The notes under the pieces were generated by a model. That model saw only the letters and a program-made list of their open reading frames with translations, had not been told where the DNA came from and did no database searches. Below, one piece after another: positions 1-3,293 of a DNA stretch of 5,659 bases; the first letter of the stretch is position 1, and every line of letters starts with the position of its first letter. The position numbers and the translations under genes are program-made. Source of the stretch: a virus (Duplodnaviria; Heunggongvirae; Uroviricota; Caudoviricetes); IMG/VR virus record IMGVR_UViG_2671181127_000006, positions 1 through 5,659 of that record; one strand, 5' to 3'.

Positions 1-3000
1 GCTTTGAGTCCTCCGGGGCGGAAACCGCACTGGGCGTGGAGGTGACGAAGGCAAAGCCGGTGACGCGCACCATCACGTCAGCGAACATTGACCGTCTGCG
101 GGTGACCTTCGGGGTGCAGTCACTGGTGGAGACCACCTCAAAGGGTGACCGTAACCCGACGTCTGTCCGCCTGCTGATTCAGCTTGAGCGTGGTGGTAAA
201 TGGATGACGGAAAAGGATGTCACCATTAACGGCAAGACCACCTCGCAGTTCCTGGCGTCGGTGATTCTGGATAATCTGCCGCCCCGGCCCTTTAACATCC
301 GGATGGTCAGGGAGACGGCGGACAGCACCACGGACCAGCTGCAGAATAAGACGCTCTGGTCGTCATACACCGAAATCATCGATGTGAAACAGTGCTACCC
401 GAACACGGCCATTGTGGGGCTGCAGGTGGATGCGGAGCAGTTCGGTGGCCAGCAGATGACGGTGAACTACCATATCCGCGGTCGCATCATCCAGGTGCCG
501 TCAAACTATGACCCGGAAAAACGCACGTACAGTGGTATCTGGGACGGCAGTCTGAAACCGGCATACAGCAACAACCCGGCCTGGTGCCTGTGGGACATGC
601 TGACTCACCCGCGCTACGGGATGGGAAAACGCCTGGAGGCGGCGGATGTGGACAAGTGGGCGCTGTATGCCATCGGGCAGTACTGCGACCAGACGGTCCC
701 GGATGGTTTCGGGGGCACAGAGCCGCGGATGACCTTCAATGCGTACCTGGCACAACAGCGTAAGGCATGGGACGTGCTCAGTGATTTCTGCTCGGCGATG
801 CGCTGTATGCCGGTATGGAACGGCCAGACGCTGACGTTCGTTCAGGACCGCCCGTCGGATGTGGTGTGGCCGTACACCAACAGCGATGTTGTGGTGGATG
901 ACAACGGCGTGGGATTCCGCTACAGCTTCAGTGCCCTGAAGGACCGGCACACGGCGGTGGAGGTGAATTACACCGACCCGCAGAACGGCTGGCAGACCTC
1001 CACGGAACTGGTGGAAGACCCGGAAGCCATACTGCGCTACGGACGCAACCTGCTGAAGATGGACGCGTTCGGCTGCACCAGTCGCGGTCAGGCTCACCGT
1101 GCCGGGCTGTGGGTGATAAAGACGGAACTGCTGGAAACACAGACGGTGGATTTCACGCTCGGGTCACAGGGGCTGCGTCACACGCCGGGTGACATCATTG
1201 AAATCTGTGATAACGACTACGCCGGGACCCTGACCGGCGGACGCATTCTGGCCATCGATGCCGCCAGCCGTACCCTGACGCTGGACCGTGAGGTGACACT
1301 CCCGGAGACGGGGACATCGACGGTGAACCTGATTAACGGCAGCGGTAAGCCGGTGAGTGTGGACATTACCGCACACCCTGCGCCTGACCGGATACAGGTC
1401 AGCCCCCTGCCGGATGGCGTGGAGACATACGGGGTATGGGGACTGAAAATGCCCGGTCTTCGCCGTCGCCTGTTCCGCTGTGTGGCCATCCGGGAAAACA
1501 CGGACGGCACCTTTGCCGTTACGGCGGTGCAGCACGTACCGGAAAAAGAAGCCATCGTGGATAACGGGGCCCGCTTTGAGCCGCAGTCAGGCACCCTGAA
1601 CAGCGTTATCCCACCGGCAGTGCAGCACCTGACGGTGGAGGTGAGCGCAGCTGACAGTCAGTATCTGGCGCTGGCGAAATGGGACACGCCGAGGGTGGTG
1701 AAGGGCGTGCGCTTCAGTCTGCGCCTGACCAGTGGAAGCGGTGAGAACAGCCGCCTGCTGACCACCGCCATCACTGCCGGTACGGAGCACCGTTTCAGTG
1801 GCCTGCCTCTCGGGGAATACACCCTGACGGTCAGGGCGATTAACAGCTATGGCCAGCAGGGCGAACCCGCCACCACCACGTTCCGGATTAACGCACCGGC
1901 AGCGCCTGCCGGTGTTGAACTGACGCCGGGGTATTTTCAGATAACGGCAGTCCCGAAACTGACCATTTATGACCCGACGGTGCAGTTTGAGTTCTGGTTT
2001 TCGGAGGCAAAAATTGCAGACGCCGCACAGGTGGAAACCTCTGCCCGTTATCTGGGGACCGGCAGTCAGTGGAGTGTCTCCGGTCCGCACATTAAGCCCG
2101 GAAAGGATTTCTGGTTTTATGTGCGCAGCGTCAACCTGGTGGGTAAATCTGCTTTTGTGGAAGCCAGTGGACGGGCGAGCAATGATGCTGCGGGCTATCT
2201 GGAACTTTTCCGGGAAAAGATAGGAAAAACGCATCTGGCAGAGGCGCTGTGGGCAGAGATTGACAACAGTCAGCTGAAGGACGAGATGGCGGAAATGCAG
2301 ACCACCATCACAGAAACCCGCAATGAAATCACGCAGACGGTCAGTAAAACGCTGGAGGACCAGAACGCCACCATACAGCAAATCCAGCGTGTGCAGACGG
2401 ACACAAATAATGACCTGAACAGCATGTGGGCGGTGAAGCTACAGCAGATGCAGGATGGTCGTCGCTATATTGCCGGTATCGGTGCCGGTATTGAGAACAC
2501 CCCTGACGGGATGCAGAGCCAGATACTGCTGGCAGCGGACCGTGTGGCATTCATTAATCCGGAGAATGGTGATACCACACCCGCACTGGTCACGCAGGGG
2601 GGACAGACGTTTATCAATGAGGCCCTGATAAAGGTTCTTACCGCCCCCACCATTACCAGCGGCGGCAATCCCCCGGCATTCTCCCTGACGCCGGACGGCA
2701 GGCTGACGGCCCGTAATGCCGATATCAGCGGGAATATCAGTGCCAGTTCCGGTACGCTGAATAACGTGACGATTGCGGAAGACTGCACCATTAATGGAAC
2801 GATGAGCGCTGACCGAATCATTGGTGATATCGTCAAGGGATACACGGTTGATATGGGGCAGGGCGTAATGACTCAGAACCAGCTGACTTTTCAGAAAATG
2901 ATTTTGCTGAAAGACAACATGCCGTTTGATCGCAAGCTTATGCTTATGGCGTATTCATTTTCCAGAGGTGAATTCATCATGAAGATAAATGACAAAGTTG

Positions 3001-3293
3001 TCGTTCATGCCAGGTCAGGCAAAGTCAAAACCGGGGAGCGGGAGGTCCAGATTTCCAAAAACGCCAGCAGATATGAGCCGGTATATTCTGATGTTGGCGG
3101 AAGTGCGTCAGGCTCATGGAGTATTCCTGCCGGACAGGGTGATGTGCGGGTTGAAATTACATTCAGGTATGAAGCAGATGTGCTTTTTTACATGGGTGGT
3201 TCAATACTTCATGATAAGAGTAAAATTCGGATCCATGACCCGGTTCTGTTTTACCTGAAATCCTATACAGACGATTTTGATACCGCATCGTGA
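1..3293 (+). CDS. J: Host specificity / tip attachment protein J (central tail fibre), 5'-partial; stop TGA at 3291-3293
   Basis: The frame is open from nt 3 (codons 3,6,9...) with no stop until 3291, so the GTG at 36 in the ORF track is not the real start and the gene begins upstream of the window. The translation ([32 protein letters not shown]..., [124 protein letters not shown]) matches, from memory, long conserved stretches of phage lambda gpJ. The single 1085-codon ORF has coding-like composition. Confidence 0.9.
   Translation, partial: [1096 protein letters not shown]
1611..2175 (+). other. Two tandem fibronectin type III-like (Ig-like) domains inside J
   Basis: Two consecutive ~90-aa segments with a beta-sandwich-like pattern: [13 protein letters not shown]...[17 protein letters not shown]...[25 protein letters not shown] and [34 protein letters not shown]...[21 protein letters not shown]. 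FN3 domains are established in lambda gpJ. Boundaries are approximate and assigned by eye. Confidence 0.4.
2838..3290 (+). other. Divergent C-terminal distal module of J (putative receptor-binding domain)
   Basis: Recalled similarity to lambda gpJ runs through ...[18 protein letters not shown] (ending nt 2837) and is then lost; the last ~151 aa ([36 protein letters not shown]...[13 protein letters not shown]) do not resemble the lambda LamB-binding C-terminus. Composition drops: hand count gives about 35% GC for nt 2941-3000 against about 58% for nt 1201-1260 in the conserved body. Confidence 0.5.

Follow-up and report, generated by a model that had tools for sequence, protein, structure and literature searches.

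Is the divergent end of a lambda-type J gene a foreign domain joined to a conserved body, the outcome of divergence in place, or an exchangeable member of the gpJ receptor-binding family? The question is raised by a 5,659-nt stretch of phage DNA (Caudoviricetes; IMG/VR record IMGVR_UViG_2671181127_000006, positions 1 to 5,659; hereafter the window), in which a single reading frame at nt 3-3293 (TGA at 3291-3293) encodes the C-terminal 1096 amino acids (aa) of a J tail tip protein of the lambda type. According to the evidence below, the last 151 aa of this protein (the tip) are very probably the receptor-binding domain at the end of the trimeric central tail fibre of a lambda-like E. coli prophage, with a divergent gpJ fold and a place within an exchangeable cassette of ~1.07 kb.

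The identity of the gene is established by five Pfam domains within the one long open reading frame (ORF), namely FNIII-A_GpJ, Phage-tail_3, Ig_J, Ig_J_second, and Phage_Tail_Tip, all five with E-values from 1e-30 to 2e-40. The window begins inside J, whose 5' end lies ~238 nt upstream of the window start as judged from related E. coli prophage loci. In identical or near-identical loci (L006, L007, and L009), the genes are arranged as tail L, K (C40 peptidase), I, J, and stf, which is the lambda-type order L-K-I-J-(lom)-stf; lom is absent from the window.

Extent of the exchanged cassette

The features on which the comparison rests are as follows.

nt 3-2380, + strand: J body, with hub domains, FNIII/Ig-like domains and the start of the alpha-helical shaft (Pfam; identity to the other-tip alleles L003 and L004)
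nt 2381-2822, + strand: portion of the exchanged cassette encoding the distal shaft and the central straight fibre, ~lambda aa 847-994 (identity drop against L003 and L004)
nt 2661-2760, + strand: highly conserved block and secondary crossover zone, ~lambda aa 941-973 (same-tip alleles L007 and L008)
nt 2823-2837, + strand: GDIVK motif, lambda gpJ aa 995-999, directly before the receptor-binding domain
nt 2838-3293, + strand: divergent receptor-binding domain, 151 aa and stop, predicted beta-sandwich of the gpJ receptor-binding-domain fold
nt 3120-3236, + strand: polymorphic patch distinguishing two natural tip alleles (8 nt differences, 7 codons)
nt 3294-3450, + strand: spacer specific to the cassette, free of lom, hok and cor-like genes (identity to loci with other tips is regained at nt 3431-3451)
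nt 3443-3466, + strand: terminator-like hairpin and T8 run (consensus scan only)
nt 3478-4944, + strand: Stf-like side tail fibre gene containing collagen repeats, which flanks the cassette on the right and is conserved (Pfam phage_tail_N, Collagen, Phage_fiber_2)

Two loci that carry other tips, L003 and L004, delimit the cassette. Per 100-nt bin, the J body of both is mostly 92-100% identical to that of the window up to ~nt 2380, with dips to 83-89%. Identity then falls from at least 94% to ~65% at nt 2366-2420, nt 2381-2822 are homologous to other alleles at only 62-82% nucleotide identity, and after ~nt 2840 the sequences are unalignable. Identity of 99-100% to the window resumes at nt 3431 in L003 and at nt 3451 in L004, and is maintained on through stf. 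In L003, whose J tip differs, and in L007, the bins of stf are mostly 99-100% identical to the window, apart from the length-variable collagen bins. As the agreement of L003 and L004 with the window extends over both flanks and is lost in between, sequence comparison places the exchanged cassette at ~nt 2381-3450 (~1.07 kb); it comprises three parts of J (the last portion of the alpha-helical shaft, the central straight fibre, and the receptor-binding domain) together with the spacer. An earlier note on this DNA took the end of J for an exchanged module bearing the receptor-binding domain, and this view is borne out, while the note's restriction of that unit to the tip from nt 2838 onward is too narrow. 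The boundary near nt 2838 is real as a limit of similarity, as megablast matches of window nt 1-3480 to other E. coli J alleles stop at nt 2774, 2828 or 2839-2842; it is not a junction, but merely the place where the alleles cease to be alignable.

The reciprocal arrangement is found in L007 and L008, which have the same tip as the window. These alleles diverge from the window by 8-14% at nt 2405-2675 or nt 2405-2756 and are identical to it afterwards; since the switch to identity occurs at nt 2676-2757, a second crossover zone lies within the conserved block at nt 2661-2760. The same flanks are thus found with different tips (L003 and L004), and the same tip with different flanks (L007 and L008). 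Furthermore, a tip of 66% identity (P0009) is coupled to a different fibre sequence. At an identity of at least 90%, the segment nt 2420-2837 has matches in 29 of 5,426 complete E. coli genomes; the tip occurs, and nt 1-3480 are fully covered, in exactly this set. With an offset of 54 between window and lambda residue numbering, the conserved block (~lambda aa 941-973) takes in both aa 960, where the published J specificity region begins (PMC6646904), and aa 964, the site at which natural gpJ C-termini have been grafted onto lambda to retarget it to OmpC (PMC11338833). The specificity region of lambda (aa 960-1132) has been described as an independent module that is phylogenetically independent (PMC6646904); the modularity of this part of J is therefore already published and is an expected mosaicism in lambda-like phages.

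Homologous recombination in the conserved flanks would swap the cassette, with the J body or the conserved block at nt 2661-2760 serving as the left flank and the 5' end of stf as the right flank. The cargo carried in the spacer differs between cassettes: there is none in the window, a lom gene (Ail/Lom family) in L004 (6304-6903), and a hok/gef toxin gene in L002 (6513-6653). The J body itself (nt 1-2400) is also mosaic, its identity to the closest alleles being 83-90% in patches such as nt 1081-1500 and nt 1901-2100.

An alternative to exchange is that the tip shares the lineage of the J body and diverged in place through fast point mutation under diversifying selection. Clustered amino-acid changes are all that separate two natural alleles of the tip, which indicates that point-mutational adaptation does occur here. 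However, L003 and L004 cannot be aligned to the window inside the cassette although both flanks are near-identical, the same tip is found on fibre segments that are 8-14% apart (L007 and L008), and the published phylogenetic independence of the region (PMC6646904) points in the same direction. Divergence in place is improbable on this evidence, and exchange of the cassette is the preferred explanation.

Fold and remote relatives of the tip

The GDIVK motif is encoded by nt 2823-2837 and is followed by 453 nt, i.e., 151 aa. Both observations had been made in the earlier note and are upheld: in a phmmer search against PDB sequences, lambda gpJ (8IYK and 8XCJ) aligns strongly up to GDIVK, and the count of 453 nt gives the 151-aa remainder. 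The accompanying statement that these 151 aa are unrelated to the lambda C-terminus is contradicted at the level of both fold and remote sequence similarity. In BLASTP, the tip alone aligns to lambda J aa 984-1132 with 24% identity over 110 aa (E = 2e-4), and the motifs DxxPFDR and PAGxG are common to the two. A profile of the tip family (the window, P0004, and P0009) matches lambda-type tips in hhalign with an E-value of 2e-5 and a probability of 76%, and matches the L002/P0010-type tip over 134 columns with an E-value of 2e-14; the L002-type tip in turn matches lambda-type tips at 2e-6.

The predicted structure leads to the same conclusion. An AlphaFold2 (AF2) model of window nt 2640-3290 has predicted local confidence (pLDDT) values of 87-97 over the beta-sandwich. 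When an AF2 model of the tip alone is used as a Foldseek query, the top four matches are the lambda and A8 gpJ fibres (8XCK, 9WCA, 8XCJ, and 9WCB; E = 1e-5 to 8e-5, template modelling (TM) scores 0.54-0.56), whereas the next-ranked match has an E-value of 1.6e-3 and a TM score of 0.31. The predicted domain therefore superposes on the solved gpJ domains clearly better than on other folds. These data show the window tip to be a rare and strongly diverged sub-family of the lambda/A8 gpJ beta-sandwich (Ig-like) receptor-binding fold. In the PHROGs database, the tip is assigned to phrog_5269, a group of unknown function (E = 1e-17).

The same comparisons bear on the possibility of a non-homologous replacement, in which a binding domain foreign to the J family would have been fused after GDIVK to give the last 151 aa. 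The lack of a Pfam Ig_GpJ_C match, the return of essentially the tip's own family from a search of 1.84 billion representative proteins, and a GC content at third codon positions (GC3) of 0.48 in the tip vs. 0.74 in the body would all be in keeping with a foreign domain. The remote homology and shared fold largely refute it, and it is very improbable.

Several points weigh against an exchangeable gpJ-type receptor-binding domain as the overall reading. The window tip and P0009 have no match at E<=1 to the Pfam model of the domain (PF12421, Ig_GpJ_C; gathering threshold 26.2 bits), and the window tip is accordingly outside the family as Pfam defines it; lambda is matched at 6e-75 (250 bits), the common E. 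coli type (L004) at 4.5e-38 (131 bits), and the L002 type at 14.4 bits. The homology support from sequence alone is weak, as the hhalign probability of 76% indicates. The AF2 models are of monomers and contain low-confidence loops (residues 72-82 and 123-128 of the tip-only model). The recombination junctions were placed from a handful of pairwise comparisons.

Composition, distribution and alleles of the tip

The base composition of J falls toward its end. GC content is 59.7% (GC3 0.74) at nt 3-2399, 55.5% (GC3 0.64) at nt 2400-2837, and 44.8% (GC3 0.48) in the tip at nt 2838-3290; none of 300 permutations reached the observed change-point statistic for GC3 along J. A fall from ~58% to ~35% GC had been claimed for the tip, and the fall is real; the figure of 35%, however, fits only the lowest stretch (36.7% over 120 nt, nt 2881-3000), while other bins of the tip have 51-53%. 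Rather than a sharp step at nt 2838, there is a gradient, and the maximum-likelihood single change-point in J lies at nt 2733 for all codon positions and at nt 1887 for GC3. The latter position falls in the J body and not in the tip.

Whether such a fall dates the acquisition of the tip can be judged from 70 J genes of 7 tip types, taken from IMG/VR, E. coli genomes, and lambda. In all 7 types, both GC and GC3 are lower in the tip than in the body (bodies, GC 0.573-0.590 and GC3 0.69-0.73; tips, GC 0.456-0.561 and GC3 0.46-0.62). The window tip type has the lowest GC of the 7, with no qualitative difference from the others. Because every sampled tip type has a lower GC and GC3 than its body, the drop is no evidence of a recent acquisition, as had been proposed; low GC in the tip is a feature of J genes as a family and should not be taken as a marker of recent transfer. 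Old relatives of the tip family are present within E. coli prophages, with 66% (P0009) and 32% (L002 type) amino-acid identity.

The tip type is rare. It occupies 52 sites, all of them chromosomal and at most 6 in any one genome, in 29 of the 5,426 complete E. coli genomes, and its nucleotide conservation is 98-100%. By tblastn, it is present in 5 of 50,697 phage records, all of them PhiR12 phages with E. coli C or K-12 MG1655 as the listed hosts, in which the tip is 95% identical to that of the window; 8 IMG/VR contigs contain it as well. No relative emerged from a scan of 185,579 species (one genome each) that is sensitive to near-exact peptide patterns only, and a word-indexed search of proteins, for which the tip alone was the query, gave just three fragments of the same tip. 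Beyond its own family, the exhaustive search of representative proteins returned only weak multi-repeat matches (P0006-P0008), which are regarded as compositional matches to repeat proteins and were rejected as homologues.

The same rare tip occurs at 6 places in E. coli SW070917 and at 4 places in DETEC-S792, and may have spread between co-resident prophages by recombination. One J copy in SW070917 is broken by IS4. In PhiR12_5 (PV340554; L001 6300-6470, ~window nt 2675), J is split into two coding sequences (CDSs) at a C5 run that is one base short, a frameshift that would leave J without its receptor-binding domain. A homopolymer sequencing error is the probable cause, given that the sequence was deposited as the genome of a phage for which E. 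coli C is the listed host. In PhiR12_2, more than one CDS lies beneath the match, and a separately annotated tail fiber protein covers the tip.

That the divergent, AT-richer end of the gene is the non-functional relic of a decaying prophage is scarcely credible: many E. coli prophages are defective and the neighbouring stf is annotated as a pseudogene in some relatives (L006 and L008), but the 1096-codon frame is uninterrupted, the prediction of the beta-sandwich core is of high confidence, and the tip is conserved over the 29 genomes and also occurs in five deposited genomes of phages for which laboratory hosts are listed.

Among 13 loci, the tip occurs as two main alleles that are separated by 8 nt differences, all within nt 3120-3236, and all 7 of the affected codons encode replacements (S95G, V103A, D114G, M119R, K127T, K129Q, and H133P). 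The clustering of these differences is significant (P = 5e-4), while the excess of replacements between the alleles is, taken alone, not significant (synonymous differences, Sd, 0.5; nonsynonymous differences, Nd, 7.5; P = 0.14). In the AF2 models, 5 of the 7 replacements lie within the low-confidence stretch that precedes the last strand. Asp114 of the tip is aligned to Asp1107 of lambda J, a key residue in OmpF gain-of-function, although this BLASTP alignment at 24% identity offers a lead only. At the variable sites, the window allele has A or T (5 A and 3 T) and the other allele G or C. Variation driven by a diversity-generating retroelement (DGR) was rejected on the mixture of A (5) and T (3) at these sites, a template repeat or reverse transcriptase not having been searched for. 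Gene conversion over a short patch, with a divergent allele as donor, is likewise unlikely, because the seven replacements come with almost no synonymous difference.

Downstream of J, the spacer to stf is 184 nt long. The terminator-like hairpin and T8 run, seen in a consensus scan only, lie 12 nt 5' of the stf start codon and fall inside the zone where identity resumes; an Rfam scan of the window gave no match. The length of stf, a gene with collagen repeats, varies among otherwise identical loci, and in L006, L008, and L009 its C-terminal part has been exchanged as well, from ~nt 4600 on; the bins concerned are 4101-4200, 4401-4500, and 4601 onward. An ORF that begins at nt 5294 (start MIIKKFTLYSPEK) leaves the window at its end, nt 5659, and is DUF4376-like; its counterpart in related loci is an annotated DUF4376 domain protein downstream of stf, at the position expected for the tail fibre assembly gene.

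Receptor binding and known systems

At the end of lambda gpJ, an alpha-helical shaft is followed by a beta-prism straight fibre and then by an Ig-like receptor-binding domain, which enters trimeric LamB with four distal loops (PMC11101478). Upon LamB binding, the three domains spread, the fibre twists, and the shaft flips (residues 841-861 refold), which opens the tail (PMC11101478). The window J retains the shaft and fibre sequence as well as the receptor-binding-domain fold, and the same lever mechanism is therefore the best reading of its function. From the conserved trimeric fibre sequence upstream, the tip would be a homotrimer at the end of the fibre with its distal loops turned to an outer-membrane protein. 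By homology with the lambda structures, the three tip domains would push these loops into that protein; binding would then spread the tip, pass a twist up the fibre, and open the tail for DNA ejection.

The listed hosts of the PhiR12 phages, E. coli C or K-12 MG1655, suggest that the receptor is present on both E. coli K-12 and E. coli C. A receptor other than LamB is plausible for the window tip. No receptor for the tip or for the PhiR12 phages was found in the literature searched, nor was any paper dealing with these phages or with their accession numbers. The tip is missing from the supplementary sequences of PMC11338833, and it is likewise not dealt with in a 2026 receptor-screen preprint. 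A more tentative proposal, and a doubtful one at present, is that the window tip and the L002/P0010 type form a separate branch of gpJ receptor-binding domains, outside the Pfam model, which binds an outer-membrane receptor new to lambda-like J proteins and thus neither LamB nor OmpC/OmpF. If this were true, the two alleles, with their seven clustered replacements including the one aligned to Asp1107, would record a shift of receptor or of receptor allele, as in the OmpF gain-of-function experiments with lambda.

The principle of J-tip exchange is not new, but the type of tip described here is rare, and in the papers searched no functional study of it was found. What the window adds is a concrete, rare type of receptor-binding domain that is missed by standard domain models, the natural limits of its cassette (junctions near nt 2381, nt 2660-2760, and nt 3431-3451), and a pair of alleles that differ solely in a putative host-range loop. 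Such tips could be of use in retargeting delivery particles derived from lambda and in training models for receptor prediction, in which tips of this kind are currently not represented.

Of the characterised systems, the receptor-binding domain of lambda gpJ (aa ~1000-1132; 8XCJ/8XCK; PF12421) occupies the same place after GDIVK in the same multi-domain J protein. It has the same predicted beta-sandwich as the window tip (Foldseek TM 0.54, E = 1e-5), shares DxxPFDR and PAGxG with it, and presumably has the trimeric lever mechanism (PMC11101478) in common with it. On the other hand, the window tip is only ~24% identical to that of lambda over 110 aa, has no Pfam match, is 151 aa rather than 133 aa long, and has longer loops. 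It also does not have the C-terminal tail ISDLLVxVxKKxxAGIxI that is conserved in lambda-type tips, and the use of LamB is not implied by the likeness. The tip of the A8 gpJ chimera (9WCA/9WCB; Brodel et al., 2024, PMC11338833), which belongs to the P0017/P0025 group and is a normal member of Ig_GpJ_C, binds OmpC. Unlike that of the window tip, its receptor is known, and the two are only 15-21% identical in structural alignments.

The J specificity region (aa 960-1132; Maddamsetti et al., 2018, PMC6646904) is, like the window cassette, a C-terminal J module that circulates independently. The window crossover zone at nt 2660-2760 corresponds to ~aa 941-973, and the changes between the window alleles cluster at the sites of lambda host-range mutations (Asp114 ~ Asp1107). 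In contrast to the published region, the window unit begins ~110 codons upstream (~lambda aa 847) when measured against its closest other-tip relatives, and it runs beyond the stop codon into the spacer, or, in other alleles, into lom or hok. The nearest distinct relative of the window tip is the L002/P0010-type tip (a prophage of E. coli JNEC-KY174 and IMG/VR contigs), at 32% identity. Like the window tip, it starts with GDIVKGY, has a low GC3 (0.46), and is below the Pfam threshold for Ig_GpJ_C; it differs in its loops, in its C-terminus, and in the hok/gef gene carried in its cassette.

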